Positions 1 through 58,274 of a stretch of 64,000 nt of DNA are shown piece by piece (the stretch's first letter is position 1; every line of letters starts with the position of its first letter). The position numbers and the translations under genes were made by a program. The stretch comes from a virus (taxonomy: Duplodnaviria; Caudoviricetes), in the IMG/VR virus record IMGVR_UViG_3300020048_000076, positions 1 to 64,000 of that record. The stretch is one strand, 5' to 3'. Below the pieces are notes generated by a model. That model was not told the origin of the DNA. It was given only the letters and a program-made list of their open reading frames with translations, and did not search any database.

Positions 1-9
1 ATTCAACGT

Positions 10-117
10 TCATTTCTTTTCCTCTTTTTTCTTCTTACCGAAGATAGCTTCCCAGTTGTCGTTATACTTCTGTTGATCAGTCGGTCTTTGCTGACTGCCT
101 TTTCCGCCGGTGCTCAT
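10..117 (-). CDS. small hypothetical phage protein (35 aa, MSTGGKGSQQRPTD...WEAIFGKK)
   Basis: ATG at 117 overlaps the stop of the upstream gene; GKGS..RPTD..W..IFGKK pattern recalled from small phage proteins. Confidence 0.55.
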   Translation of the reverse strand: MSTGGKGSQQRPTDQQKYNDNWEAIFGKKKKEEKK

Positions 118-875
118 ATAAATCGCCCGTCCTTCATTATGCCTTGTGATCGACGAAATTCTGTGTGTCTTAAAATCAAGTCTTTGTTGTTGCGCATAAA
201 CATAATTAACCCCCAACCCATGCTGCCTTGTTTAAAAACATAGCCTTTTTTTGCTTTTTGTACACGTTCCCCTTGCTTGGCTGAAGCTAATTTTTCTAAA
301 GCATAGGGATACCAGAGTTCAATCTCTTTTCTATTGTAAAGATATGAAAGATTAGCTTTTAAACAAACATGTTTGGGCATACAGTAATGCGGTGTTCTGC
401 TTACTCTATCTAACGTTACCAAGCTAATGTTTAAGTCTTTGGCAATTGTTTTTCGAGATATCATTTTACTATCATCAGGGATGTTTACCATCTCTTGTGG
501 TTTCTTAATCTCAGGTTTTACTTCCACTTTTATTTCCTTTACGGTTTTGGTAATTTGTTTACCGGCTTTTTTAGTTTCAGCTTTTTTCTTTTCGTGTTTT
601 CTATGTGATTCAGCTATTTTTTCCTTATTGTTTTCTGCATATGCTTTATAGTAATCTGCTACTTTACTAGCGTTATCCATGTACCAAAGTGCTTGGTATT
701 CTTTTTGTTTTTGTTTTAACACTACGTCTTGGGCTATGCGTTCAATCCTTCTTTGATTAGCGGCTTTTACTTTATCTGGGTTGGCTAGTGCATAGGCTTT
801 TTTCCTTGCTTGAATAGCCTCTTTATTCTCAAGGTAATAGGCTTTGTTTTTAGCCAGTTTTTCTTCTCTTGTCAT
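114..875 (-). CDS. basic helical-repeat protein with C-terminal AlpA/excisionase-like HTH
   Basis: N-terminal NKEAI/NKEKI helical repeats; SRKTIAKDLNISLVTLDR...YLYNRKEIELW resembles a winged HTH; ATG at 875 overlaps the preceding stop (ATGA). Confidence 0.5.
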   Translation of the reverse strand: MTREEKLAKNKAYYLENKEAIQARKKAYALANPDKVKAANQRRIERIAQDVVLKQKQKEYQALWYMDNASKVADYYKAYAENNKEKIAESHRKHEKKKAETKKAGKQITKTVKEIKVEVKPEIKKPQEMVNIPDDSKMISRKTIAKDLNISLVTLDRVSRTPHYCMPKHVCLKANLSYLYNRKEIELWYPYALEKLASAKQGERVQKAKKGYVFKQGSMGWGLIMFMRNNKDLILRHTEFRRSQGIMKDGRFI

Positions 876-982
876 TGCCATTGTAAACTCTCCACAATAA
901 CGCTTATTAAAACAATAGCCATCCCTATTAAGCAAATAGCTAATACGATTTCATTTTCATCTCGTCGTTTAGGTGATCTCAT
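872..982 (-). CDS. small membrane protein (36 aa), absent from the ORF track
   Basis: MRSPKRRDENEIVLAICLIGMAIVLISVIVESLQWQ*; ATGA overlaps at both ends; one hydrophobic stretch. Confidence 0.5.
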   Translation of the reverse strand: MRSPKRRDENEIVLAICLIGMAIVLISVIVESLQWQ

Positions 983-1173
983 TTTCCACATCTCATCCAA
1001 AGTTGTTCTGCCAGTCTATGTCGGCTTATTAATTTTTCTTTCTTTGCTGCTTTGTATTTCTTTTCTAATTGAATACATCGTTGTTCTATTGTCGGCTTTT
1101 TAGATGTCGGCTTTTTGGCATAGGCATTGCTAGTGATTATTGCCAGTACAATTATTGCGATGGTAGTTTTCAT
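979..1173 (-). CDS. small exported protein
   Basis: Signal-peptide-like N-terminus MKTTIAIIVLAIITSNAYA; GAGG RBS. Confidence 0.55.
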   Translation of the reverse strand: MKTTIAIIVLAIITSNAYAKKPTSKKPTIEQRCIQLEKKYKAAKKEKLISRHRLAEQLWMRCGK

Positions 1174-1197
1174 ATCGGCCTCGTGTAGTTGTCGGCA

Positions 1198-1767
1198 TTA
1201 AGCCAGCTCATCTAAGGGAATATCCTTTTTAATCAGAGCATAGATTGTTTGCCTAGTGACTTCAAAATGGTTGGCTATATCGATTTTTGATGTCCCGCCG
1301 TAATACATGGCTAAGGCCATGGCTTTTTGCTTTTTGCTTAGTGATTCAGGGCGACCGAATTTTGTTCCCTTCTTACGGGCAGCAGCCAATCCAGCATTTA
1401 CCCGTTCAGTGATCAGGCCGCGTTCAAACTCGGCTAAACTGGCAAAGATATGGAATATCAATTTACCGGTGTTGGATGTGGTGTCGATACTTTCCGTTAA
1501 GGATTGAAAGCCGATGTCGGCATTCTCTAAATCTTTTACTACGACTAATAAATGTTGGAGGCTGCGTCCTAGCCTATCTAATTTCCAAACGGCCAGTGTA
1601 TCCCCTTTTCTGAGCGATTTTAAACAGTTTTTAAGCTCTGGCCTATCGGTCTTGGCACCTGACATCTTTTCTTGATAGATAATTTCACATCCTGCGGCGC
1701 TAAGTGCATCTAATTGCAATTGTGTATCCTGATCATTGGTGCTGACTCGTGCGTATCCTACTTTCAT
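1198..1767 (-). CDS. small serine recombinase (resolvase/invertase family)
   Basis: GYARVST catalytic motif, VWKLDRLGRS, FASLAEFERGLITERVNAG, KFGRP arm and C-terminal HTH. Confidence 0.95.
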   Translation of the reverse strand: MKVGYARVSTNDQDTQLQLDALSAAGCEIIYQEKMSGAKTDRPELKNCLKSLRKGDTLAVWKLDRLGRSLQHLLVVVKDLENADIGFQSLTESIDTTSNTGKLIFHIFASLAEFERGLITERVNAGLAAARKKGTKFGRPESLSKKQKAMALAMYYGGTSKIDIANHFEVTRQTIYALIKKDIPLDELA

Positions 1768-1792
1768 TTGTGTATCCTCTTCGGTTGTCGGC

Positions 1793-2371
1793 TTAATTGT
1801 CTGTTAACAGTTCAAAAACTTCTTTCATTCCTTCATTACGGCGTAGTTTTCTTAATGCTTTAGCTTCTATTATCCGAACACTTTCACCTGTTATACCAAA
1901 TTCTTTTGCGATTACATCCAGTGTTTTTGCTTCGCCATCAATACCATATCTAGCGTTAAGCACTTTTTGCTCTCGGTCAGTTAATGCTGATACCACATAG
2001 TCAAAAGCTTCTATAATCTCAGAATTACATAAAGCTTTCATAGGGTCACTTGATTTTTCTAAACGAGTTAATTCTTGATGTGAAAATTCATAATCGATTT
2101 TGTTAGTTACTAAAGCGGTTAACTGGTTTTCTGACCAAACCTCATAGGGCATGACACAAAAGTAATCACAGATTAACTGTGCGCCTTTTTTAAGGTTTCC
2201 GGTCTGTTTTTGAAGTGGTGAAGTGACCATATTTAAATAGTTATTTAAATATGGGTACCCTATACCTATCAATTTGGCTGTTTCTACCGGACCATGTCCT
2301 CCCTCCTCAATTAAACGCAACAAATTATTATTTCTAATTTTTAAAGTAACTCGGTAATCTTTTGTACTCAT
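1793..2371 (-). CDS. HTH plus sigma70 region 4 domain protein (putative transcription regulator)
   Basis: C-terminal LTDREQKVLNARYGIDGEAKTLDVIAKEFGITGESVRIIEAKALRKLR matches Sigma70_r4; N-terminal HTH-like segment; start placed at 2371 after the AACCGAAGAGG RBS. Confidence 0.8.
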   Translation of the reverse strand: MSTKDYRVTLKIRNNNLLRLIEEGGHGPVETAKLIGIGYPYLNNYLNMVTSPLQKQTGNLKKGAQLICDYFCVMPYEVWSENQLTALVTNKIDYEFSHQELTRLEKSSDPMKALCNSEIIEAFDYVVSALTDREQKVLNARYGIDGEAKTLDVIAKEFGITGESVRIIEAKALRKLRRNEGMKEVFELLTDN

Positions 2372-2397
2372 CTTAATATCCTCTTCGGTTGTCGGCA

Positions 2398-2769
2398 TTA
2401 GTCCAGTGATAAACCACGGTCTTTTGCTTCGTCTATTAATTGCTGATCGTCGATATTGAAAAGCATTTCTTCTACGGTGAATAAAGCAAGGGCATCTATA
2501 GCGCCTTCTTCGATCAGCTGTTGGCAAATAGTTAACGGTTCAAGTTCATCCTGAATTGCAGTTAACATTTCCTGAGCGTCAAACATCTGCATGGGTTCTA
2601 ACCCCATGTCTAAAGTTAATAAGGTAACTTCTTCTGAAGTTAACTCTGGGAATACATCCAAGATATTCATTCGGTTATTAATGAAATGGGTGATGTCGGA
2701 TAAATCCAATTTAGTATCAAATTGAATCTGGAATATTCGGTTTAAAATTGAAGTATCTTTGGTACACAT
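2398..2769 (-). CDS. hypothetical acidic protein
   Basis: ORF preceded by conserved leader and AAGGA RBS. Confidence 0.65.
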   Translation of the reverse strand: MCTKDTSILNRIFQIQFDTKLDLSDITHFINNRMNILDVFPELTSEEVTLLTLDMGLEPMQMFDAQEMLTAIQDELEPLTICQQLIEEGAIDALALFTVEEMLFNIDDQQLIDEAKDRGLSLD

Positions 2770-2823
2770 AGGTGTTTCCTTTTCGGTTGTCGGCCTTTAG
2801 TTGTCGGCATAGTTAAAATGTTG

Positions 2824-2857
2824 TAGCAAATGCTATCACGATTTTTTACGTTTTCAA
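2824..2857 (-). promoter_or_regulatory. putative sigma70 promoter (TTGAAA-N16-TAGCAT with extended TG) overlapped by the palindrome TAGCA-TT-TGCTA
   Basis: Minus strand TTGAAAacgtaaaaaatcgTGaTAGCATttgcta upstream of the 2769 gene. Confidence 0.4.
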
Positions 2858-2975
2858 ACCCTTTTATTTGACTGGGTTGGGTTTTTTTTACTGGGTTGAA
2901 GTTTAACGTTTAGTACTGGGTACAATACTAAAGGGTAAGCTTACCGGTAAAGGTGCGCCGTCCTTGGCGCTGGGG

Positions 2976-3302
2976 TTAAGCTTTTAAATAATCGGCCATG
3001 GTGAGGATATAGTTTTTGCAGTCCAGTATTAAGTCCCATGTTAGATAAAATGCTATGTTGTTAACTTTAACATCGCCGGTTATTTCATAAAACAATATGT
3101 ATATTTTAACGTTGTCGTCTTCAGGAAATGAGCTATTGATATCTTGTATTTGAGTATTTGCCGGTGTGCAATAAATATGGTCGCCTACTGATACCATGTA
3201 GTAGGTGATCATTTGACTGCTTTCTTCTCTATCAAAGTTTTCATAACGGATTATTTCATTATGTAATGCTCTAATGTATTCACTTTTTTGTGCGTGGTTC
3301 AT
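2976..3302 (-). CDS. hypothetical early protein
   Basis: ORF with conserved leader. Confidence 0.7.
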   Translation of the reverse strand: MNHAQKSEYIRALHNEIIRYENFDREESSQMITYYMVSVGDHIYCTPANTQIQDINSSFPEDDNVKIYILFYEITGDVKVNNIAFYLTWDLILDCKNYILTMADYLKA

Positions 3303-3353
3303 GGTGTTGCCTCTTCGGTTTAGTGCGCCGTCCTTGGCGCTGGGGTTGTGGGG

Positions 3354-3770
3354 TTAATTGATAACGGTAAAATCTTTATAACCTAGTGCTTCGGTGATTG
3401 CTTCAAGTGCTTCTCTGGTCTGTCCTGATCCGTTTATTGATCGGTTTAATACTACGCCGGCGCTTTCTAATGCGTCGCCTAGTGCGGCGCTTATTTTGTC
3501 GTAACCATAGCCCCCTGCTGATCCGTGGCCGCTGGTGCTGTAACCATAGCAATTAATCCAAACTGAGCAATAGACTACGCTGGCGCTTGTAGCTCTGCCC
3601 ATGTAAAAACGTGCATCGATAACGGTCATAAAATCGCCGTCAGGCGCTGTTTTTAGTTTAGCAATAGATAGGTAGCGGTCTACCGTTTCTTTATTGCCTC
3701 CAAGGTTTTTAGCGTTGTCCTTTTGGTCGTTATATGATGGGATAGTTGCAATTAATTTATCTTGTGCCAT
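3354..3770 (-). CDS. hypothetical early protein (SGHGSAGGYGYDK motif)
   Basis: AAGGAG RBS; TAATG overlap with the upstream frame. Confidence 0.75.
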   Translation of the reverse strand: MAQDKLIATIPSYNDQKDNAKNLGGNKETVDRYLSIAKLKTAPDGDFMTVIDARFYMGRATSASVVYCSVWINCYGYSTSGHGSAGGYGYDKISAALGDALESAGVVLNRSINGSGQTREALEAITEALGYKDFTVIN

Positions 3771-4133
3771 TAAATAGACTCCTTTTCGATGGCTGGTGTG
3801 GTTGCTGGTGTGGTTGCTGGTGTGGTTGCTGGTGTGGTTGTTAAATCTTCCAGGATCGGGTTAATTAATCCAAGTTGAGCCGTCAAGCGTTGTACTGCTT
3901 GCTCTTTTGTTTCTCGCTTTAGGGTTAAGGGTTCGGCTCCTGTCCGTCCGTCTTCGTGCCATGATCGGGTTAATTAATCCCAGTTGAGCCGTCAAGCGTT
4001 GTACTGCTTGCTCTTTTGTTTCTTGCTTCAGGTTTAGGGGTTCGCCTCCGTTCCGTCCGTCTTCGTGCCTAAAATACAAAACGTTATTTTTAACATAGTA
4101 ACAAAAATAGGGGCGCTCTGATGTTGTGGCCAT
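3770..4133 (-). pseudogene. early gene interrupted by a 109-bp imperfect tandem duplication (frameshift)
   Basis: 3852-3960 and 3961-4069 are near-identical; the distal copy's frame runs through TTPA x4 to a TAA that overlaps the next ATG. Confidence 0.6.
3792..3839. repeat. 12-bp tandem repeat (GCTGGTGTGGTT)x4
   Basis: Four perfect units; encode TTPA repeats on the minus strand. Confidence 0.95.
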
Positions 4134-4233
4134 GGTCTGTCCTCTTCGGTTGGTTAATTAAGTTTAGCGGTTAGCACTAAAGTTTAATGCTAGCTGATAA
4201 GCTTGCGCCGTCCTTGGCGCTGGGGTTGTGGGT

Positions 4234-4389
4234 TTATCCGCCGTTCTTAACGAATATTGATATCGCTCTCTTGGCGGCTTTCATGGTCTTGTACGGTTTA
4301 GTTCCGTAACCATGGCAAAAAGATACTCTTACGGCTGGATGGTTAAAATATCCGTGGATGTAACAGCCTTTATAATAATCTGTAAACAT
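4234..4389 (-). CDS. small hypothetical protein (51 aa), absent from the ORF track
   Basis: MFTDYYKGCYIHGYFNHPAVRVSFCHGYGTKPYKTMKAAKRAISIFVKNGG*; fills the gap between two leaders. Confidence 0.6.
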   Translation of the reverse strand: MFTDYYKGCYIHGYFNHPAVRVSFCHGYGTKPYKTMKAAKRAISIFVKNGG

Positions 4390-4409
4390 AATTTTCTCTT
4401 GGTTGTGGT

Positions 4410-4718
4410 TTAGTAATGGCTACCGTATTCGATAGCATACAGGGGGCGGCGGTTTGATTTGTCAACAATCACAATATTATACTGGTCATCTTCTATTGCG
4501 CATTTTCCGGCGCTGGATTGGTTTAACAGTCCAGCATCCCTAAAGTATTTTAATAATTTTCTGGGGCTCCATGTAAGCGCCTCTTCTGATATCTCGCCGG
4601 CGTTGTACCATTGGTTCCAGTTCCAGCTTTTGGGCTCTGTATCTGCCCATGCGTCAATGCTTAAGATTTTAAGGGTTGTTGGTTCTGTTGGTTCTGGTGC
4701 GTTTTGTTCGTTGTTCAT
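4410..4718 (-). CDS. hypothetical early protein
   Basis: ORF in array with GGCGGA RBS. Confidence 0.7.
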   Translation of the reverse strand: MNNEQNAPEPTEPTTLKILSIDAWADTEPKSWNWNQWYNAGEISEEALTWSPRKLLKYFRDAGLLNQSSAGKCAIEDDQYNIVIVDKSNRRPLYAIEYGSHY

Positions 4719-4727
4719 GGTTCCGCC

Positions 4728-4943
4728 TTAATCGTCAAGTAATGAATCAGGGAATACTTTTATTTTCTTGCCCTTGTAGCTAATACAAACTAGGCCAAAA
4801 TTACCAAAACTTTCGTAAAATATAGCGGTTCTGGTGATCAGTTCGCCGCTCTTTGTTTCTAGTGTTACTTTTTCTTTTTTGCCGTTGGTATAGACTACCC
4901 ATCGGCTACCGGTGTTGTTTAAATAATAGCATCCGTTTAACAT
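4728..4943 (-). CDS. hypothetical early protein
   Basis: Start moved to 4943, directly after the hairpin and AACCGAAGAGG leader. Confidence 0.7.
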   Translation of the reverse strand: MLNGCYYLNNTGSRWVVYTNGKKEKVTLETKSGELITRTAIFYESFGNFGLVCISYKGKKIKVFPDSLLDD

Positions 4944-4990
4944 GGTTTTTCCTCTTCGGTTGTGGCCGTCCATGGCCGTGGTTGTGGGCT

Positions 4991-5734
4991 TTAGTAGCTG
5001 ATAGCGTTCCAATAATTATCTTCTAACTTTTCGATGTCTTCAAAAGCTTTTGCGCGTTGGTGCATTATGTCGTTGAGGGTGTTTTTGATCGCTTTGCATA
5101 TCGGTTCCGCGTAGCCCTCCGGATGTGCTTTTAACTCTGCAATCAGGGGCAAGGCTTCGCGGTTTAGTTCGTGGATCATTTCGCGGTGCGTCCTGATGTC
5201 TTCCTCTGCTCTATATTTTGCGTCCTCTTCTCTGCCCTCTTCGGCTATGCGTTCGGCGTAACGGTTGGCGGCGTGTGCGGCTTGGTTCATACAGTCGTAA
5301 ACATCGGCGTAAACTGTCGCGCCGTCCCAATCATTAGAATAGACCGCCGGCATAAATTGAATATGGGCGCCGGCGTTGTCGCGGTCGTCGTCGTTTAATG
5401 CTTTGGGGTTGCGGATAAAAACAACTGCGGGGATTACTAAATCATTTTGTAAATTGTCCGCATACCATGATGATATATTACGGGCGCCGGTTTTGTCCGC
5501 GTCAATCCATTTTTTACAGGGGAAACTGTCCAAGGAATCGATAAAATATTTTTGTTTATCGGTTGAGCGCGTCAAGTATGGCCGGCTTAATACTTCCGGT
5601 TTTGGGTACCGGTGGCTTTGCCATTTTGTGCGGTAAGTAATACCGTTTTCAATATATAGCGCGTTTGATTGTTCGGCCTTTGCTTTGTAAGCTTTCAGGC
5701 GGCGGCTTGCTGGTGTGTTTAGTTGTGCTTTCAT
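4991..5734 (-). CDS. hypothetical early protein (247 aa)
   Basis: ORF with AGAGGG RBS. Confidence 0.75.
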   Translation of the reverse strand: MKAQLNTPASRRLKAYKAKAEQSNALYIENGITYRTKWQSHRYPKPEVLSRPYLTRSTDKQKYFIDSLDSFPCKKWIDADKTGARNISSWYADNLQNDLVIPAVVFIRNPKALNDDDRDNAGAHIQFMPAVYSNDWDGATVYADVYDCMNQAAHAANRYAERIAEEGREEDAKYRAEEDIRTHREMIHELNREALPLIAELKAHPEGYAEPICKAIKNTLNDIMHQRAKAFEDIEKLEDNYWNAISY

Positions 5735-5754
5735 GGTCTGCCCTCTGTTTTGGT

Positions 5755-6015
5755 TTATGGTTTGGTTTGTATTGGTTTTCTTACGTGTTCGGGGTTCGGT
5801 TCTAATCTATAAATTATCCGATAGGTTCCACGTTCGTTGTCGCGGTAATCTTTCAGGTTGTCGCGTACTTCGCGGCTGTTTTCGCTTGCGGTTAGGTCTT
5901 CCCATCCGTCACAGTAAAACCCTTGTAAAATGTAAAGATACAAAAATTTATTAATGCGTGGCGCTTTGGTTGTAGGCTTTGCGGTTGCTGGTGCGGTTGC
6001 GGTTGCTGGTGTCAT
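5755..6015 (-). CDS. hypothetical early protein
   Basis: ORF with hairpin leader; LQGFYCDGWED motif. Confidence 0.7.
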   Translation of the reverse strand: MTPATATAPATAKPTTKAPRINKFLYLYILQGFYCDGWEDLTASENSREVRDNLKDYRDNERGTYRIIYRLEPNPEHVRKPIQTKP

Positions 6016-6059
6016 GGTCTGCCCTCTGGTTTAGGTTGTGGCCGTCCGTGGCCGTGGTT

Positions 6060-6293
6060 TTAATTTATTAAGTATGTGCAGTCGTTGCGGTGTTCGCGGT
6101 CTTCTTCGTCCATCTCTACAACTTTATAATCTTTTAACAGTAAAAAAATGGTTTTGTAATGGTCTTCTAGTTTTTCACCTAAAAGACAATTCTTTAAAAT
6201 GTTAACGGTGGCGGCGTGGCGCTGTGCGTTCTCTACACTGTCAAATTGCGCGCCGTCTTCGGTGCTGTAAATGGTTTTACATTTTATTATCAT
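6060..6293 (-). CDS. hypothetical early protein
   Basis: ORF in array. Confidence 0.6.
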   Translation of the reverse strand: MIIKCKTIYSTEDGAQFDSVENAQRHAATVNILKNCLLGEKLEDHYKTIFLLLKDYKVVEMDEEDREHRNDCTYLIN

Positions 6294-6318
6294 GGTTGCG
6301 GCCTTGGTTCTGGATCGG

Positions 6319-6531
6319 TTAAGGGTGGGCGCGTTCTACTTTTTGGTAGGTGTCCGACGTTGTTACCAGTTCGGAAACCGTGTAAATTCGTCCCTGATCC
6401 AAAATAAAAAGGCCGCTCTTCGTGTGCTCAAGCTTCACAAGATCGGCGGGTTTTGGCATGTTGGCGGCGATAAAATACCCGGCGCTAAAAAATGCAAGGG
6501 CGGCGGCGATGTTAATAAGTGCGTTTTTCAT
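6319..6531 (-). CDS. small membrane-anchored protein
   Basis: N-terminal hydrophobic helix; full conserved leader upstream. Confidence 0.7.
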   Translation of the reverse strand: MKNALINIAAALAFFSAGYFIAANMPKPADLVKLEHTKSGLFILDQGRIYTVSELVTTSDTYQKVERAHP

Positions 6532-6628
6532 AGTGTAGCCTCTTCGGTTGGTTGGTTGGTTAAAGTTTAACGTTTAGCACTGGATAGAATGCTAAAGGGT
6601 AAACTGTGCGCCGTCCTTGGCGCGTTTA

Positions 6629-6799
6629 TTACTTGGGGCGGTGTTCGGTGTATCTTTTTTCTTTTGCGGCTGTGGCGGCTCTTTTTAGGGGGCAATTGGC
6701 CAGGCTTTTAAGGTGTGCGCCTATTGTGTGCCATGTGATGAAATCATACTGGTCAATATAGCCAGTGATACCGGATAATATAAAGCTTTTTCCTTTCAT
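6629..6799 (-). CDS. small hypothetical protein (56 aa), absent from the ORF track
   Basis: MKGKSFILSGITGYIDQ...; ATGA overlap with the upstream stop. Confidence 0.5.
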   Translation of the reverse strand: MKGKSFILSGITGYIDQYDFITWHTIGAHLKSLANCPLKRAATAAKEKRYTEHRPK

Positions 6800-7410
6800 T
6801 GGCCGGCGGCCTTTCTTAAGCTTGGCGCAGTCAGGGCGGCGGCGTTTAACAGGTCTTCGAGTTCTCGCGCTTCGGCGTAGGGTTGGCCGGCTCTGTATAA
6901 ACTTGATTCATAATTAAGGGCTCTGTATTCTGAATTTGTAAAAGATTTTAAGCTCATGTGCGCCGGTTTGCGCTCGTTTAATATTCCAGATATGCCGCGG
7001 TCAAGGTCTAAAAATGCGATTTTGTGATCAATTAAAAGTGTCGCCGCTATGCGTTGCCCGTGGGCGCTGTATAGGTTGCCCGTGTTCCATGTTTCAATAA
7101 GGGGCGGCGCTGGTGGTGCGGCTGGTGGTTCAATCTCTAAAAGTTCGGCCATGCTTAAAGACATTAAATCGTTATAGGTTTCGGCCAAAAATTGAAATCT
7201 CAAATCTGCTAATGATTGGCCGGCGGTGAATGCTTGCGCTTTTTCCATTGCTAACTTTTCGCGCTCTGTGCGGTCGTTTAACATGCCATCAATACCATTT
7301 TTTAATACGTCGGCGGCGCTGGGTGTTGCGCGTTCGTTTAGGGTTTTTCTGGCTTGCGCTTCGTGTGCTATTTCTTGGGCTTCTAAAAATAAGGTGTTTA
7401 ATTTGTTCAT
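6796..7410 (-). CDS. hypothetical early protein
   Basis: ORF with hairpin leader. Confidence 0.7.
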   Translation of the reverse strand: MNKLNTLFLEAQEIAHEAQARKTLNERATPSAADVLKNGIDGMLNDRTEREKLAMEKAQAFTAGQSLADLRFQFLAETYNDLMSLSMAELLEIEPPAAPPAPPLIETWNTGNLYSAHGQRIAATLLIDHKIAFLDLDRGISGILNERKPAHMSLKSFTNSEYRALNYESSLYRAGQPYAEARELEDLLNAAALTAPSLRKAAGQ

Positions 7411-7473
7411 TGTGTAGCCTCTTCGGTTCGTGGTTTAGGTTGTGGCCGTCCTTGGCCGTGGTTGCTGGATCGG

Positions 7474-7629
7474 TTAGCAGTCGAAAGGCTCCGTTATTGG
7501 TTCCGGTTTAACGTTTTTTAACATTTCATTTAATGCGTTATTTTCGCGCTCTTTCCATTCTGGCATGCTTGGCGCTGGTGCGCTTGGGAATAGTTCATCA
7601 AGGGCGGCGTGTGTATCTGGTTCTCTCAT
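7474..7629 (-). CDS. small hypothetical protein (51 aa), absent from the ORF track
   Basis: MREPDTHAALDELFPS...; flanked by near-identical leader repeats. Confidence 0.6.
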   Translation of the reverse strand: MREPDTHAALDELFPSAPAPSMPEWKERENNALNEMLKNVKPEPITEPFDC

Positions 7630-7704
7630 TGTGTAGCCTCTGCGGTTGGTGGTTTAGGTTGTGGCCGTCCTTGGCCGTGGTTGGTTCTGGTTCTGGTTGC
7701 TGAT

Positions 7705-8508
7705 TTAGTAGCCTTTTATACTTTCGGCGGCTCTGGTGGCGGCTTCAAAGTCGGCGCCAAACTCTTCCATAAATACGCCGCGGATCGCTTGCACTGTGTA
7801 GCCGTGGCGCTTTGTTTCTTCCTTACACCAACTAATGTTCCCATTTAGCCAACTTTCGCAAAGTTGGTTAATTGGGCTTTCTTGTTCTTGTTCTTCTTCG
7901 GCTTCCCATTCGCCGGCGTCTTCTTCCTCTTCGTCGTCGTTTTGTTGGTAGTCATAGACTGCTCGCGCCACTTCCTCTAGGGCAAACCAGGATAAGCCAT
8001 TTTTAACGGTCGTGCTTTCTTCCGCTTCTGGATCAATCAAAGCATTAAATATTTCTTGATCAGTCAGGCCGGCAAAACAATTAAAGGCGGCCATCATTTC
8101 AAATGAGCTTTTGTATCCGCAATCGGTGGCCATCTCGGCGGCCATTTTTAAGATCGGCTCGCGGTTGGCGTCAAAAAATGTAATGGTGTCGCTATAGTAT
8201 GAAAAGCCAGGAAAACCACCGGCGGCGCCGTGGTCGCTTATGTTCGCGGCGCTTTCTTGAAAATAAAGCCAGTCGCCGCCAAACTGGGCAACGGTTGAGC
8301 GGATCAGCTCGGCGGGGATGTGCGGCGCTCTAGCGATAAGGTTTCTAATACTTAAAGTTTTGATGCTTTCGGTTGTGTTCATGGTTGCGGCCTCTTCGGT
8401 GGTTGTTGTTGGTTGGGTTGGAAATCTTGCGGCTAAATATTCGGCAAGCTCTGAGCCGTCAATTTTGCTTGTATTGCTGGGGTTCATTGTTTCGTTTGAT
8501 GTGGCCAT
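7705..8508 (-). CDS. hypothetical early protein with acidic C-terminus and a second in-frame start at 8382
   Basis: HGAAGGFPGFSYYSDT motif; RBS motifs precede both 8508 and 8382. Confidence 0.7.
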   Translation of the reverse strand: MATSNETMNPSNTSKIDGSELAEYLAARFPTQPTTTTEEAATMNTTESIKTLSIRNLIARAPHIPAELIRSTVAQFGGDWLYFQESAANISDHGAAGGFPGFSYYSDTITFFDANREPILKMAAEMATDCGYKSSFEMMAAFNCFAGLTDQEIFNALIDPEAEESTTVKNGLSWFALEEVARAVYDYQQNDDEEEEDAGEWEAEEEQEQESPINQLCESWLNGNISWCKEETKRHGYTVQAIRGVFMEEFGADFEAATRAAESIKGY

Positions 8509-8833
8509 GGTCGTTCCTCTTCGGTTGGGTGATGCCGTCGCCGGTCAGGCGGGGCGGGGTAAAACTAAAACATTAACTTAAAACTAGATTAAATTATAAC
8601 GTCAATTAATTATGTGTGTATATAGTTTTTTTAACGTTTATTTGTTATTTATGCCTTTATGTAAGAAAAGCTATATAAATCAATAGGTTAGGTTATAACT
8701 CGGCGCTTCTCGGCGCTCTTACCAAATCAAAATAAATTAGTTTTTTACGTTTTGGCCGGCAGTCGTTGCGGTGTTTTTATGGTGTTTTTGAGCTGTTTTT
8801 TGGCATGGTTAATGCTAAGGGATCAGGGGCGGT

Positions 8834-8940
8834 GGGATCGCTTCGGGATCGGTTCGGGATCGGTTCGGCTTCTGTAGCATTTGACAGCGGCGGCGGTGGT
8901 CTTGTATCTTTGAAGCGGTCGCCGGTCGCCGGTCGCCGGT
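8834..8940. repeat. short tandem repeats (GGGATCGGTTC)x3 and (CGGTCGC)x3
   Basis: Read directly at 8834-8866 (first unit has one mismatch) and 8916-8940. Confidence 0.85.
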
Positions 8941-9002
8941 TGCGGTTCAGGGGTTCGGGTTCGGTCTGGATGCCTTGGGCGGGTTGCGGGTGGTTTTTTG
9001 AT

Positions 9003-9227
9003 ATGTTATAACATAACAACAATGTTATATTATAACATCTAAAAATTAGATATTCTTTTTAGGTATTATCTAATTTTTAGTTATTTGTTACGGTGGGCGG
9101 GTTGCTTAAGTCTTTTGTTTATGCGGCTTTGGTCGTGGGTTTTGGTGTTTTGTTAATCTCTACCGGCTCTAGTGGCTCTGGTTGCTATTGGCTAAAGGCT
9201 AAAGGCTGATATGTTATATTATAACAT
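9003..9227. promoter_or_regulatory. palindrome cluster: ATGTTATAACAT (9003), ATGTTATA-T-TATAACAT (9022, 9211) and a 14-bp inverted repeat (9039-9052/9067-9080)
   Basis: Read directly; the minus strand of each 17-mer contains TGnTATAAT. Confidence 0.7.
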
Positions 9228-9871
9228 GTCCTTGCAGGTATTTCGGCAATGTTCGCGTACGAATTGATTTTTTTATGGTGGGGTCTTTGTATGCCTAATT
9301 CTATTTCGTGGCGTAGTGAGCATTTTTCGGGGCAAAAAACATACATTGTGAGGGCTTCGTCTGAGTTGGATTTGTTGCGCGTGGCTCGTCGAATAGATAG
9401 CGCCGGTTTTGCGTCGTGCAGGATTAAGACAAAAGCGGTGGCGGGGGTCTGGTCGGCGGCTTGGTCGTTCTTCTGGTCGCCGGCGGCTGTTTCGGTTTTC
9501 ATGGCGGCGTATACCGGCGGCGCTCTGGTCGCGGTGCCATTTAATAACGTTTTAAATCACCGGCGGCGGGGATATTATGCGGGGGTTGTTTAACGTTGCA
9601 TTGTTTACCTAGTTTTTTAACGTTTTTGGGGCGTTATATTGCCCAAACTGGCATAAAATAAGGGTGTTAATAATATAAATGTTTATTTAACGTCGATTTG
9701 CAGGGCTTCGGCGGCTTGTTGTCGTTGCTCTGTAGGGGTGCAAAAAATGCTGGATCGCTGCGCTCCTGTAGGTTCTCGCTTCGCTCGGCTTTATTTTGAT
9801 AAAGTCAAAAACTATAATGAGTGGCTACGCCACGCCATTTTGATAAGGTCAAAAGAAAGCTACCATTCCCA

Positions 9872-9885
9872 GGGGGGTATACCCC
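9872..9885. other. GGGGGGTATACCCC palindrome at the strand-composition switch; candidate packaging/terminus or origin landmark
   Basis: Plus strand is G/T-rich to the left and C/A-rich to the right. Confidence 0.4.
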
Positions 9886-10771
9886 TCTTTCGGCTACCGG
9901 CTCCACGCAACCACCCCATGCCTTGCATATATACATTTCTGTCAAAAATTTAGAAAAAAAATTTTAGAAAAAAATTCTCTATTAGCTTTTAGCCGATAGC
10001 TAATCCCTCACCGCTTTTAGCCGATAGCTTTTAACTAACCCCATCCCCCAATCCCATTCAAAGCTTAAATCCAACAGCTAAAACCATGCCGCATTCTTAC
10101 CAAGGGCTTTATTTCGCAACAGGTTCAGTAAAGTAAAAAAATAATAATTTATTCATTACAAATAAAGGCAGTCAGGTATCACTCCTTTTTTTATTACTCT
10201 ACTACCCTATCTATATACTCTTTACTACTACTATCCTTTAATAATATAATAATATAATATATAGTAGTAATAGAATAATAAAAAGAGTAGTATAGTAAAT
10301 AAGTAGAGGTTTGTTTAACGTGTACTTGTCAGCCGTCAGATTTGACTAGCTAGTCTAAGGTGGGCTAAAAACTTACAAAGTTACGGACATTACAGGCAAC
10401 CCCTTATAGAATATACACTTTAAGAGCATTAATGCGTGATTGTAATTAACTACTTAAGTGCTATTTAAAAATACGTAAAAAACTAAAAAGCTGTAAGTGT
10501 TTGAATTATAAAACGATAAAGGGTAAAAATACCCTTTTGGTAAAATCCTGTAAAAAACAATGAGAATTAAGGAAATATTTAAAGGTATATAACATACCGC
10601 TTTGGTGTTTTTAAAAGTAGTAATAAAAAATATGTTACTTTTTAAAGAAAAAAAATAAAAAATAAAAATAAACTTGATTTTTAAATTTTAAAGACTATTA
10701 TTAAACGAATATAGGTTAAAACTTACTTTTAACGTGCGGTTAATTTTTTAAACATAGTTAAGGACTGTAAC

Positions 10772-11818
10772 ATGATAGACGACCATTCGGAAGAAACCCC
10801 AAAAGAAAAAAATGCCAGGATGAGGCTAGAGCTAAAGCAGGATGAATTAGCCTATAAAAAAGAAAAGTTGAGGATAAAAGAAGAGCAGAGGTTAGAAGCG
10901 ATAGCTAAAAAACAAAGAAAAAGAGATTTGGATGAGCACATTTTAAACTCTAGGATCAAACACAAAGAAGAAAAAAGTATCAATCGGGATATAAGAGCTT
11001 TAGAAATATCCGCCATAAAACAGGAAAGGGCGGATGAAAGAAAGATAAAAACACTAAGAAATAAACCCGGATACGTACCTTTTGCAGACCCAGCTACTGC
11101 ATGGGTGCCTCCGTTGTATGAAGACATAGATGCTTATGGTGCTGCTAACCCAGAATGGAAAACTAAACTATATACGTCTGAAGAAATACTAAAACTTGTT
11201 TTTAAATCTAATGATACTGGGCAACAAATGAAAAGGCTTTTAACAGTAGCCATGCAAAAAGCTAATTTTGTAAGGGTGCAAACAACACGAGATTACACTC
11301 AAGGCTATTATTGGAAACACGAAACTAAATATAAATTGGATGAGCAGAATAAAGAAAACCTTTTAAAACGTAAACATTTCTTGGAAGATAAAGAGTATGT
11401 AAAAAAACACGGTACTAAAAACCCAGAAATTAAAAACAGAAAGAAAACAGAAATTGTTTTGCCAAAACCTGAAGCCTATCTTAAACAAAGAGAAGTCCAA
11501 ACTCAAACCCAAGAACCAGCATATGAATTAAACTTTAAAGATATACCTGAACGGTTCAATATGTTTTTAAAGAATAGAACACCTGATCAGCTGAAGAATG
11601 GGTTTACTGTTGACGAAGCCGCTTTGGAATTAAAATGCCTACCGATGAACATTTCTGATTTGGCAAAACAAAACCCTAATCTTGAAAGGAAAGTAAAAAC
11701 CATTGTCGGCTATTACTATGATATCCCCAAAGCTGAAACAAAGAAGAAGGACGCTCCACTATCTGCTTTGGAAGTATCAACCTATTCCGATTTGTACGAC
11801 ATTGAGGATTTAGTGTAA
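10772..11818 (+). CDS. hypothetical basic coiled-coil protein (348 aa)
   Basis: Long ORF with AAGGA RBS; no recognisable family. Confidence 0.7.
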   Translation: MIDDHSEETPKEKNARMRLELKQDELAYKKEKLRIKEEQRLEAIAKKQRKRDLDEHILNSRIKHKEEKSINRDIRALEISAIKQERADERKIKTLRNKPGYVPFADPATAWVPPLYEDIDAYGAANPEWKTKLYTSEEILKLVFKSNDTGQQMKRLLTVAMQKANFVRVQTTRDYTQGYYWKHETKYKLDEQNKENLLKRKHFLEDKEYVKKHGTKNPEIKNRKKTEIVLPKPEAYLKQREVQTQTQEPAYELNFKDIPERFNMFLKNRTPDQLKNGFTVDEAALELKCLPMNISDLAKQNPNLERKVKTIVGYYYDIPKAETKKKDAPLSALEVSTYSDLYDIEDLV

Positions 11819-54483: not shown

Positions 54484-56709
54484 ATGGCTACTGTTACTCT
54501 ACGATCTGCTGTTAATCGTGCTTTAACCAGTACAGAGATTGATAACAATTTTATTAATCTTGATACTGGTAAGGTAGAAGCTGGCACACCTGTCTTTACT
54601 GGATTGGTAACTTTACCAAGTCAAGATATTGATATGACTGATTCAAGTTTGCCTGATATCGCACCAAGTTTAAACTTGGACTTTGCAAACGGAGAACAGT
54701 TAGACAGTAGAGTGACGTTTGGTCGAGGGAGTGCTGGAACTTACTATGACGGTAAGAGTGTTGCGAAAGCTGAGGAGAATTTGTTTACGCAGAGTAATTT
54801 TCAGGGTGGATGGAACCTTAATGCGGCTACATATTCAGTGTCAGGCAGTATAGCTGCGCCTGATACAACTTTGAGTGCTGCCACGCTAACCTCAACAAAT
54901 AGTGCTGTTGGCTCGCTGACGATTATATATCGTACAAGTAGTAGCATAGGATTTACTGGGATAGGAACATTTAGTGTTTACGCTAAAAAAGGAACTTCTA
55001 ATTTTTTAGGTATGTCAAATAGCACCACTGGCTCGTATGCTTGGGCTAATTTTAACTTAGCCACAGGGGTTGTTGCGAGTTCAGGAGGATGTACCGCGTC
55101 CATTGTTGATGCAGGAGCAGGATGGTATCGCTGCATTATGGCTAATATTACGATACCGCAAAATTATATAACCTATGCAGGAATAGATGCAGACCCAGCA
55201 AATAATACCAATGTTTTTGGAGTATTTACATCAGGCAATACAATTTACCTTTGGGGCGCACAAGCAGAAAACAGAGCATCAGTTACAGCCTACACACCCA
55301 CAACTACAGCTCCAATAACTAACTACATTCCAGTTTTACTATCTGCACCCTTAAACACCCCAAGATTTGACCACGATAGCAGACCTGCTTTCTATGGAAC
55401 TTGTACGGTATCGGGTTCTGCGGTAACGCTACCTACGACTTTCGCTGATGGTTCTAGCCCTTCCACTGTTAACAAGTTCTACAGTGGAAGTATCACCATA
55501 TCAGGTACGTCTTATCCAATTACTAATTATGTAGGCAGTACACGAGTTGTTACGGTAACGGGTAGTCCTACGGCTGGTGTTTTTAGCTTGGTTAATAAGA
55601 ACTATGGACAGAGTTTAGGGCTGTTGATTGAGGAGCAGAGGACTAATCTGGTTACTTATAGTAGTGATTTTAGTAATGGAATTTGGGGTAAAGTAAATAG
55701 CACTATTACAACAACATCAAATATTGCGCCAGATGGTACTCAAACTACACAATCATTAATAGAATCGGTTACAAATTCAAGACATTTCGTTTACCAATTA
55801 AAATCCATAATTGCGACATCTATATATTCTGCATCAGTATATATAAAAGCTGGAGTTAGACGATACGCAACACTAGGATTAAAAAATAATGTACCTTCTC
55901 TTTTATACGCTATAAATATTGATTTATTAACAGGTGTGATAACAAACACTACTAGCGGTGGTTCTCCTACTGGAATTTCTTCAGCGGTAGTACCAGTAGG
56001 TAATGGTTGGTATAGATGCACAATTAGTATGACTTCTATCACAGGAGATACAGCATTTTATTCTGCAATAGGGATATCAAATTCACCATCACCATCTTGG
56101 TCAGATGAGTGTGCATCTTATCAAGGCGATGGCTACTCAGGCATCTACATCTGGGGCGCACAGCTCGAAGCAGGTTCTTTCGCAACTTCCTACATACCCA
56201 CACCTTCCAATGCTACTGTAACAAGGTTTGCTGATAGTGCTTCTATGACAGGAGTGAATTTTAGCTCTTGGTATAATCAGAGTGAAGGGAGTACATTTTT
56301 TGAATGGAACTCTTATGGTTCTTCAGACCCTACTATGGGTATAAAATTTGATAGTGGCAGTGATGTTAATAGAATACAAATTGGTGCTACTACTAAAACT
56401 GGTCTAGCATTACGAACTTATATAACTACAAATAATATAACACAATTAAGTTTAATTTTTGGTACTACTGCTATTAACTTATTTAGTAAGTCTGCGTTAT
56501 CTTGGTCATCTAGTAGTTGTATAGCTTATTGGAATGCAACTACTAATAGTTATATAGGAACTATTTCTTTACCAATAGTTAATAGATTAATGATAGGTTG
56601 TGATTTTGCTCCAGGTGTTACTGGACAGATTAACGGTCACATCCGCAAACTTACTTATTACCCCAAAGCTCTAACCTCAACTCAGCTCAAAGGATTAACT
56701 AAACCATGA
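54484..56709 (+). CDS. tail fibre / receptor-binding protein A (ConA/LamG-like modules)
   Basis: LNLDFAN, GLLIEEQRTNL, WGAQLEAGSFATSYIPT, NGHIRKLTYYP. Confidence 0.8.
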   Translation: MATVTLRSAVNRALTSTEIDNNFINLDTGKVEAGTPVFTGLVTLPSQDIDMTDSSLPDIAPSLNLDFANGEQLDSRVTFGRGSAGTYYDGKSVAKAEENLFTQSNFQGGWNLNAATYSVSGSIAAPDTTLSAATLTSTNSAVGSLTIIYRTSSSIGFTGIGTFSVYAKKGTSNFLGMSNSTTGSYAWANFNLATGVVASSGGCTASIVDAGAGWYRCIMANITIPQNYITYAGIDADPANNTNVFGVFTSGNTIYLWGAQAENRASVTAYTPTTTAPITNYIPVLLSAPLNTPRFDHDSRPAFYGTCTVSGSAVTLPTTFADGSSPSTVNKFYSGSITISGTSYPITNYVGSTRVVTVTGSPTAGVFSLVNKNYGQSLGLLIEEQRTNLVTYSSDFSNGIWGKVNSTITTTSNIAPDGTQTTQSLIESVTNSRHFVYQLKSIIATSIYSASVYIKAGVRRYATLGLKNNVPSLLYAINIDLLTGVITNTTSGGSPTGISSAVVPVGNGWYRCTISMTSITGDTAFYSAIGISNSPSPSWSDECASYQGDGYSGIYIWGAQLEAGSFATSYIPTPSNATVTRFADSASMTGVNFSSWYNQSEGSTFFEWNSYGSSDPTMGIKFDSGSDVNRIQIGATTKTGLALRTYITTNNITQLSLIFGTTAINLFSKSALSWSSSSCIAYWNATTNSYIGTISLPIVNRLMIGCDFAPGVTGQINGHIRKLTYYPKALTSTQLKGLTKP

Positions 56710-58274
56710 GTCTAATTATAAAAAGACAAGGCGTAGGTGGTAAAGGTTCTCCGCTTACTTCCAGTGAAGTAGATGCTAATGTCAATAACCTTAACAATGA
56801 CAAAGTTGAAACAGCCAACAGCACTTTCACTGGAACACCCAGTCTTGTTGATAACTTAATACCATTGACTGGAACGGTATTACCTGCTATCTACCCAACA
56901 CTTAACCTAGACTTTGCTAATAGCCAAACACTAGACCCAAGAGTTACTTTTGCCAGAAGTAGTACAGCGACTTATACCGATAAGACTGGTTTGGTTAAAC
57001 TTGCCAATCCTAATATCCCTCGCTTTGACTTTGACCCAATCAACAGAAAGTGCTTGGGGCTACTGATAGAAGAAGGTAGAACTAATCTATTGGTTAATTC
57101 CACAATAGATGGAGCTAACCTTGCCACTCAGAATATAACCACCACTGCGGCTGCTAGAACTTTGAGCTTCTATGGAAGTGGAAGTGTTGCATTGTCGGGT
57201 AGAGTTAATATGCTAACTAAGACTGAAGATCTTAACAACGTGGCGTGGGAAAAACCCGATGGCGCACTAACCATTACGGGTGGCGTTTCTGACCCGCTTG
57301 GTGGGTCAACGGCATTCACGCTAACAACATCGGCTGTCAATCAAAGATTTAGCCAACTTAATGGTTTGTCTAATATTTCTGCGTCGGTATGGATTCGACG
57401 TAGAACAGGCTCTGGTGCAATTGGTTTATTTAACGGGGCTGCTTGGTCTGCACTCGCTATCACATCGGAATGGAAACTATTTTCTGTCGCAGGTGGGTCA
57501 CTTTTTTCTCTATACTTGAGTGCATCAGGAGATGCTTTTGATGTGTGGCATCCCGATGTACGCCCAACTAACACCACCAACTTTTTACCAGCCTATCAAA
57601 GAGTTAATACAACTACTGACTTTACTCCTGCAACAGCAACCATAGTCGGTCTAGGTGCTTATCCAACTCGCACAACTTATACCTATACTCCTACGGCTGG
57701 AACACTTACAGTAACTGTTAGTGGAACTGTTCAGTATGCCAATGATGAAGCGGGAAAGTTTGCCACAAGTTTTATGCCTACAGGTGGAAGTAGTTTTAGT
57801 CGGGTTGCTGACAGTGCTAGTATGACTGGGGTGAACTTCTCTAGTTGGTTTAATCAGGCTGAGGGTAGTTTTTATATTGATGAGGATTTATTAGCACCTA
57901 CTAATCAAGTTGATGGATACTCCATCCGAGTTGCGGGTGCTTCAAAACCATATGTAGTGGGATATAGAAATTCTCTAACAGCCACTAAAGCTGCGTTTGT
58001 AGGTTATTCTGGTGGGACAACTCAAATAATTGTAGGTAATCCCATGAAAATTGCTATGTATTATTCGCTAGTTAGCGGATTTTACAACGGCATAATAAAT
58101 GCCACAATATCAAATGCAGATATAGCGATTGGGGATTTTAGTGGAATACAATCTACCATGATTATAGGCTCGTATGGCGGGGGTTCAGCAGGAAACCTTA
58201 ACGGTCACATCAAAAAGCTTACCTATTACCCCAAAGCACTTTCATCTTCTGAACTCGTAGGACTAACACGATGA
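56706..58274 (+). CDS. tail fibre / receptor-binding protein B
   Basis: Same conserved blocks as A. Confidence 0.8.
   Translation: MSLIIKRQGVGGKGSPLTSSEVDANVNNLNNDKVETANSTFTGTPSLVDNLIPLTGTVLPAIYPTLNLDFANSQTLDPRVTFARSSTATYTDKTGLVKLANPNIPRFDFDPINRKCLGLLIEEGRTNLLVNSTIDGANLATQNITTTAAARTLSFYGSGSVALSGRVNMLTKTEDLNNVAWEKPDGALTITGGVSDPLGGSTAFTLTTSAVNQRFSQLNGLSNISASVWIRRRTGSGAIGLFNGAAWSALAITSEWKLFSVAGGSLFSLYLSASGDAFDVWHPDVRPTNTTNFLPAYQRVNTTTDFTPATATIVGLGAYPTRTTYTYTPTAGTLTVTVSGTVQYANDEAGKFATSFMPTGGSSFSRVADSASMTGVNFSSWFNQAEGSFYIDEDLLAPTNQVDGYSIRVAGASKPYVVGYRNSLTATKAAFVGYSGGTTQIIVGNPMKIAMYYSLVSGFYNGIINATISNADIAIGDFSGIQSTMIIGSYGGGSAGNLNGHIKKLTYYPKALSSSELVGLTR

Follow-up and report, generated by a model that had tools for sequence, protein, structure and literature searches.

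The 64,000 nucleotides considered here, called the window below, open a circular virus record of 89,711 bp with a 55-bp terminal overlap (IMG/VR record IMGVR_UViG_3300020048_000076). They belong to a tailed phage of the Caudoviricetes and contain eight short hairpins between genes on its early side. The hairpins are real, strand-specific and selected RNA elements of an apparently mobile leader module, which also precedes small genes in many otherwise unrelated phages. Their loops match the consensus bound by proteins of the bacterial CsrA/RsmA family, and the reading favored here, to which sequence comparison lends a probability of roughly 0.4, is that they would dock a host CsrA/RsmA-family protein in cis. 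Since the same module recurs in many unrelated phages, these phages would then probably plug their small genes into the host CsrA/RsmA system.

The eight hairpins and their relatives in other phages

The phage, which is uncultured, occurs in freshwater and aquatic metagenomes. Its minus-strand genes run from about 9.5 kb down to position 1, its structural genes run rightward from 10.8 kb, and Pfam and PHROG scans of the early genes indicate that those on the early side are small ORFans. The pattern GCCGTCCNTGGC, searched on the + strand, matches the window eight times (at 2957, 3327, 4207, 4965, 6041, 6610, 7445 and 7664), always on the same strand and exclusively within the span 2955-7676. 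The chance expectation estimated from shuffled sequence is 0.35, none of 100 shuffles reached eight, and no further copy is present on either strand in the rest of the 89,711-bp genome. Thus, the eight hairpins reported in an earlier, unaided reading of this DNA (the original prediction) are real.

The genes at the hairpins lie on the minus strand, so that the order in the mRNA is stem, A-N-GGA-C, stem. In all eight copies the hexaloop is closed by a C-G pair on a G+C stem of 4-5 bp, and the loop reads AAGGAC in six of them, ATGGAC in one and ACGGAC in one (Table 1), just as originally described. The stems form two classes, GCGCC/GGCGC (hairpins at 2955, 3325, 4205 and 6608) and GGCC/GGCC (4964, 6040, 7444 and 7663), which are related by the compensatory swap already noted in the original prediction; it falls at the fourth pair (C-G versus G-C), and a fifth pair exists only in the GCGCC class. 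Every hairpin is intergenic, starting about 4-28 nt past a stop codon, and in seven of the eight the next ATG follows after 20-85 nt; the hairpin at 2955-2970 is the exception, with about 185 nt separating it from the ATG at 2769. A and C make up nearly all of the flanks, and RNA folding predicts all eight hairpins within a leader that is otherwise open.

The claim that these structures sit between genes and lack a terminator tail also holds, as no sense-strand U-tract follows the hairpin in any of the eight copies; the hairpins therefore do not have the form of an intrinsic terminator, in which a G+C stem would lead into a U-tract on the transcribed strand. Among the eight leaders, five are A/C-rich stretches of 20-35 nt that leave no room for a promoter, and a promoter scan of the three longer ones found no consensus promoter. 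Furthermore, a search of window positions 1-11000 against Rfam gave no relevant match at E values up to 10.

The hairpin is not confined to this phage. Six of the hairpins are retained in L010, a relative with 86% identity, and two of the orthologous sites differ at N alone. Pattern scans of IMG/VR recovered the same hairpin in the same context from dozens of otherwise unrelated contigs of uncultured phages with GC contents of 40-63%, which often hold 2-4 copies clustered among small genes. After filtering, the family set holds 56 non-redundant copies, drawn from about 40 phage contigs or prophages, and its members share one order of parts: stop codon, spacer of A and C only, hairpin, A/C spacer, Shine-Dalgarno sequence (SD) and ATG. 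In most copies the nearest stop triplet ends 4-14 nt upstream of the stem and the ATG lies 20-35 nt past the loop GGA; the 5' flank consists solely of A and C, an A directly follows the stem in 50 of the 56, and every copy is oriented the same way to its gene. By loop, the set divides into ACGGAC (20), AAGGAC (19), AGGGAC (11), ACGGAT (3), ATGGAC (2) and AAGGAT (1), giving the family consensus C-A-N-GGA-Y-G with two variable positions across the 56 copies. Other stems were met incidentally (GGGCC/GGCCC, CGCC/GGCG, GGGAC/GTCCC, AGGGC/GCCCT, TGCCC/GGGCA and AGCGCC/GGCGCT).

One form of the module is found in cultured phages: GGCC-ACGGAT-GGCC stands 11 nt before AGGAG-ATG, between orf36 and orf37 of D3112. 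About 77 D3112-like phages of Pseudomonas aeruginosa retain this hairpin at 96% identity or more, the copy in Pseudomonas phage HKPH_J3 (L296) lying at 9010-9023. A short-query BLAST search of the AAGGAC form against cultured phages returned chance-level matches only. The supposition in the original prediction that no comparable phage system exists must accordingly be revised, for the hairpin belongs to a leader module that is widespread among phages.

A function at the level of DNA, as an operator, a recombinase site or an opposite-strand terminator for antisense transcription, is most improbable. A terminator scan does flag three of the eight hairpins (6040, 6608 and 7663), solely on the antisense (+) strand, where the stem is extended by G-U pairs and runs into a G/U-rich tail, and symmetric changes in an operator would mimic compensatory ones. 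However, the strict orientation to the gene and the asymmetric, conserved center of the hairpin are not what such a site would lead one to expect, the G-U extension is present in some copies only, and the carriers have no recombinase or regulator in common. DNA-hairpin promoters of the N4 type were also considered and rejected, because the 3466-aa protein of this phage is a polyvalent virion protein and not a virion RNA polymerase; the purine-rich loop on the non-template strand is a further point against them. Integron attC sites, REP/RAYT elements, RNase P minihelices, anti-SD/16S pairing and TadA-type loops were set aside as well, their size, loop or orientation being mismatched.

Agreement with CsrA/RsmA sites

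The RsmA/RsmF consensus is CANGGAYG, in which N is any nucleotide, GGA is 100% conserved and Y is cytosine or uracil (bioRxiv 10.1101/315341), and the CsrA ligands obtained by SELEX are mostly hexaloops on stems of at most 4 bp (PMC7652899). The loop and closing pair of the phage hairpins agree with both, as the original prediction had proposed, and the consensus is matched by all eight hairpins of the window, by all 56 copies of the family set and by 20 of 22 plausible members found in a scan that held flanks and stem fixed and left the loop free. That scan gave 25 matches, of which 20 are ANGGAY and three, homologous to one another, look like coding sequence in GC-rich prophages and are attributed to chance. 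Loop GGA is thus strongly, though not absolutely, kept. The original prediction had named a stem conserved around a freely varying GGA as the outcome that would tell against it; what is observed in the relatives is the reverse, with GGA kept while N, and rarely Y, vary.

A second point of agreement concerns spacing. A CsrA dimer can bridge two sites when 10-63 nt separate them, about 18 nt being optimal, and glgC is repressed through a high-affinity hairpin immediately upstream of a site that overlaps the SD (PMC7652899). The SD of 46 of the 56 family copies contains a GGA of its own, separated from that of the loop by 11-25 nt (median 17-18 nt). Since SDs naturally tend to hold GGA, this match is weaker than that of the loop. 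The phage hairpins therefore resemble the glgC-type operator in their GGA hexaloop closed by C-G, their 4-5 bp stem, their variation at N and Y only and, in the wider family, an SD that supplies another GGA about 18 nt from the first. They differ from CsrA operators in forming a repeated, mobile intergenic module of polycistronic mRNAs, in conserving the stem and the A/C flanks as well, and in the SD of this phage, which usually lacks GGA; binding of CsrA to the phage hairpins is predicted. The boxB element of lambdoid nut sites shares with them a 5-bp G+C stem, a purine-rich loop, C-rich flanks and a place in early transcripts, but it carries a GNRA-like pentaloop and occurs once per operon, paired with boxA, whereas the phage hairpins have a GGA hexaloop, number up to eight and are each tied to a gene start.

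If the loop is read by a protein, the carriers themselves do not appear to supply it. CsrA genes have been reported in phages (PMC7366521); none of the CsrA family is present in this phage, in its 84%-complete relative or in four other complete carriers (G006-G009). The five complete carriers (this phage and G006-G009) have no protein in common at a blastp threshold of 1e-4, and G008 shares none with any other complete carrier at that threshold; this comparison covered open reading frames (ORFs) of at least 40 aa and would miss very small or fast-evolving proteins. The absence of both a shared protein and a phage CsrA favors a host factor or an intrinsic property of the RNA.

The factor could also be something other than CsrA, either a small phage protein that escaped detection or another host protein, for instance an activator resembling PhaF or a factor associated with the ribosome, that reads NGGA upstream of the SD. 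In P. aeruginosa, PhaF stimulates translation via AUGGA/CGGGA motifs at about -31 to -27, a precedent that accords with the fixed position of the loop GGA (in most copies the ATG follows 20-35 nt later), and the flanks and stem are conserved past what CsrA needs. This alternative is nevertheless quite unlikely, as the match to CANGGAYG at eight positions would be a coincidence, no consensus is defined for PhaF, which pseudomonads alone possess, and the five complete carriers lack a common protein within the reach of the comparison, which very divergent products would escape.

Further support for a host CsrA-family protein comes from bacterial genomes. A scan of these gave 44 matches, mostly chance matches to coding sequence in high-GC genomes, and four real-looking copies: in a Contendobacter metagenome-assembled genome (MAG), in two Desulfovibrionaceae MAGs and on a contig of a Spirochaetaceae MAG. 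All four assemblies contain csrA above the Pfam cut-off, and csrA is present in about 30% of bacterial genomes (PMC13443453). The Contendobacter copies lie on a 111-kb contig and adjoin a phage integrase that abuts bacterial rtcB, which marks a prophage. In the Desulfovibrionaceae MAGs (L252, 132-185; L274, 4190-4244) two tandem ANGGAC hairpins about 32 nt apart stand directly before the SD, the first of them on a different stem (GAGGGC/GCCCTC or AGGGC/GCCCT), and the genes beside them have no PHROG match. P. aeruginosa, the host of the D3112-like phages, has RsmA/RsmF.

For the phage under study, the nearest neighbors of its HU protein narrow the host to Pseudomonadota and no further, the best identity in an HU search across 401 genomes being at most 50%. 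The large terminase subunit (TerL) is 43-44% identical to TerLs of Ralstonia and Pseudomonas phages, and the genome contains no tRNA genes.

In the mechanism proposed, the hairpins would sit in a polycistronic early mRNA as the stem-loop of a conserved, horizontally spreading intergenic leader, and a host CsrA/RsmA-family protein would dock at each intercistronic junction, tying the translation and/or stability of the downstream small gene to the Csr/Rsm state of the host. The glgC-like geometry of most carriers, a hairpin with a GGA-bearing SD about 18 nt away, would predict translational repression by a bridging dimer. In this phage, tethering, protection of the mRNA or mild titration would be likelier than occlusion of the SD, because its SDs are mostly AGAGGC, without GGA, and lie within a shared start leader (AACCGAAGAGG) 9-23 nt beyond the hairpin.

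Several observations weigh against docking of CsrA/RsmA. Within the window a GGA-bearing SD (AGAGGA) stands at bridging distance only from hairpin 5, at about 19 nt; the only other one follows hairpin 6 at about 70 nt from the loop, beyond the 63-nt range. Stem and flanks are conserved far beyond the needs of CsrA binding, which fits recent spread, gene conversion or an additional constraint. In a scan with flanks and loop fixed and the stem left free among G and C, all 19 matches had GGCC/GGCC, and the stem is therefore conserved in sequence, beyond mere complementarity. Of the two kinds of conservation that the original prediction had proposed to look for in related contigs, the GGA loop is indeed kept, whereas the evidence for true stem covariation is thin. 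The scan with a free loop also returned two genuine-looking members of one lineage whose flanks and GGCC stem are unchanged but whose loop is ACTACC (L337, minus strand, about 6696-6721; L342, 3844-3869). Five relatives of one carrier lineage that are cultured or nearly so lack the hairpin (Salicola CGphi29, Idiomarinaceae 1N2-2, DSL-LC04, Stenotrophomonas Bhz54 and MW202867). The gene csrA occurs in only about 30% of bacterial genomes and, among Pseudomonadota, is rare outside Gammaproteobacteria (PMC13443453). Two of the four csrA-positive assemblies are related to each other, and one of the four copies lies on a 3.5-kb contig that is possibly misbinned. Finally, a study of pseudomonads describes antiviral defenses being turned on when the Rsm regulon is freed (PMC11888443), so that titration of RsmA is not obviously useful to a phage.

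This last point also bears on the proposal of the original prediction that an abundant early mRNA with eight high-affinity sites would act as a sponge, titrating CsrA and reprogramming the host. The idea has some appeal, as the eight consensus sites on one probable transcript are similar in number to those of RsmY/RsmZ, and as most sites here are not paired with a GGA-bearing SD, so that regulation of the adjoining gene is not required. Known sponges pack their sites closely on small RNAs dedicated to this role. The phage sites resemble the sponge RNAs of the Csr/Rsm systems (CsrB, CsrC, RsmV/W/Y/Z) in presenting several CANGGAYG stem-loops per RNA, but they lie 200-1100 nt apart over 4.7 kb among translated ORFs, with no dedicated non-coding RNA and no promoter/terminator unit of their own identified. 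Terminating ribosomes would presumably melt, again and again, hairpins that start 4-14 nt past stop codons, and the other carriers hold just 2-4 sites, each before an SD. The wide spacing, the fixed position before a gene start and the low number of sites elsewhere look like control in cis. The sponge claim is thus not borne out; it is the least supported form of the CsrA idea and highly doubtful.

Gene-cassette exchange and companion elements

Comparison with the 86%-identical relative indicates that the hairpins also coincide with gains and losses of genes. Three small-gene cassettes present here are absent in L010 (7475-7626, 6059-6316 and 2977-3323), and two of these differences have a hairpin at either end (7663/7444 and 3325/2955), which explains why one phage has eight hairpins and the other six. 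The modules may therefore act as recombination joints, independently of any other function.

Similar behavior is known from the promoter-early stem-loop (PeSL) cassettes of T4-type phages, which combine a strong sigma-70 promoter, a terminator stem-loop and an SD and shuffle ORFans (Arbiol et al. 2010, PMC2839356). Both systems place a repeated intergenic stem-loop and an SD before small ORFans, and both show cassette gain or loss at the repeats between close relatives. PeSLs, however, are about 100 bp long and carry their strong sigma-70 early promoter together with a G4/C4 terminator stem-loop, whereas five of the eight leaders here have no room for such an internal promoter, none has a U-tract, and it is the loop sequence that is conserved.

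The main alternative to CsrA docking is that the hairpins are structural punctuation and recombination joints that work without CsrA, the GGA being merely inherited with a PeSL-like module. The stem-loop would then attenuate transcription, block 3'-exonucleases or, once the RNA is processed, protect its 5' or 3' end, and the repeated module of 25-45 nt would mainly provide homology for swaps of small genes. This agrees with the hairpin-bounded cassettes, with the conservation of an entire 26-mer that includes stem and flanks beyond the loop, with the second conserved element after three GCGCC copies (described below), with the non-GGA loop of one lineage and with the carrier L082, where a T-run and a sigma-70-like promoter come after the hairpin. 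On the other hand, it leaves unexplained why drift is limited to N and Y, with C, A, GGA and G fixed, across unrelated phages, genes and GC contents. Furthermore, the sense strand has no U-tract, a 4-bp stem would make a poor terminator or exonuclease block, and the leaders either are too short for a promoter or, in the other three, hold no consensus promoter. As a full account of the hairpins this alternative is unlikely, and docking of a host CsrA/RsmA-family protein is preferred to it.

The three GCGCC copies that carry a second conserved hairpin are hairpins 3, 6 and 8 (Table 1). The cores at 2887-2951 and 6564-6605 differ by a compensatory C-G to T-A change, and a sigma-70-like site is found at 2857-2830, downstream of the former. 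The second hairpin could be a site of the RNase III type, an operator with TAGCA/TGCTA half-sites or a non-sigma-70 promoter. The start leader AACCGAAGAGG has 13 matches in the window within one mismatch, against 0.77 expected, and precedes at least eight genes; as it is found with or without the hairpin, it is a separable module.

Table 1. Positions of the CsrA-type hairpins and companion elements in the window
Feature	Positions	Strand	Description
Hairpin 1	7663..7676	-	GGCC-AAGGAC-GGCC; 28 nt past the stop at 7705, 33 nt before ATG 7629
Hairpin 2	7444..7457	-	GGCC-AAGGAC-GGCC; precedes gene 6796..7410
Hairpin 3	6608..6623	-	GCGCC-AAGGAC-GGCGC; followed by a long second hairpin
Hairpin 4	6040..6053	-	GGCC-ACGGAC-GGCC; AAGGAC in the L010 orthologue
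Hairpin 5	4964..4977	-	GGCC-ATGGAC-GGCC; ACGGAC in the L010 orthologue
Hairpin 6	4205..4220	-	GCGCC-AAGGAC-GGCGC; followed by a second hairpin
Hairpin 7	3325..3340	-	GCGCC-AAGGAC-GGCGC; precedes gene 2976..3302
Hairpin 8	2955..2970	-	GCGCC-AAGGAC-GGCGC; 5 nt past the stop at 2976
Long imperfect hairpin after hairpin 3	6564..6605	-	Core TTTAGCA...TGCTAAA, then GTTAAACTT; folding z = -2.3
Second hairpin after hairpin 6	4172..4192	-	TAGCATTAA...TTAGTGCTA, then GCTAAACTT
Long imperfect hairpin after hairpin 8	2887..2951	-	Core TTTAGTA...TACTAAA, then GTTAAACTT; folding z = -2.8
Shared 11-nt start leader AACCGAAGAGG	1776..8526	-	12 of the 13 window copies (at most one mismatch)

Two further repeats lie in the hairpin-bearing region. 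A 12-nt tandem repeat at 3775-3835, with GGTGTGGTTGCT units on the + strand, adjoins the start codon of gene 3354..3770, and a direct duplication of about 110 bp occupies 3850-4070 within gene 3861..4133. Elsewhere in the window, a gene for a DNA invertase of the Hin/Gin type (1198-1767) and three consecutive paralogous tail-protein genes (phrog_5939; 54484-60271) were noted, a combination which suggests switchable tail fibers.

Implications for phage regulation

Taken with the exchange of cassettes, the favored reading can be widened, at slightly greater risk, to a widespread mobile module that would present an optimal CsrA/RsmA ligand before accessory genes, would allow unrelated phages to read or buffer the Csr/Rsm state of the host and would serve as a gene-swap joint too. 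In the literature searched, no description of phage CsrA-operator modules of this kind was found.

Should CsrA-family binding prove true, one portable RNA module would couple the small early and accessory genes of unrelated phages to the master post-transcriptional regulator of their hosts, a layer of phage-host regulation which, on the same search, would be new. The Csr/Rsm system, which controls antiviral defenses in pseudomonads and Serratia, would thereby be directly linked to the expression of phage genes, and the copy in D3112-like phages of P. aeruginosa offers a cultured, genetically tractable system. If instead the hairpins do not bind CsrA, they would still provide phages other than the T4 type with a compact, well-defined joint at which gene cassettes are shuffled.

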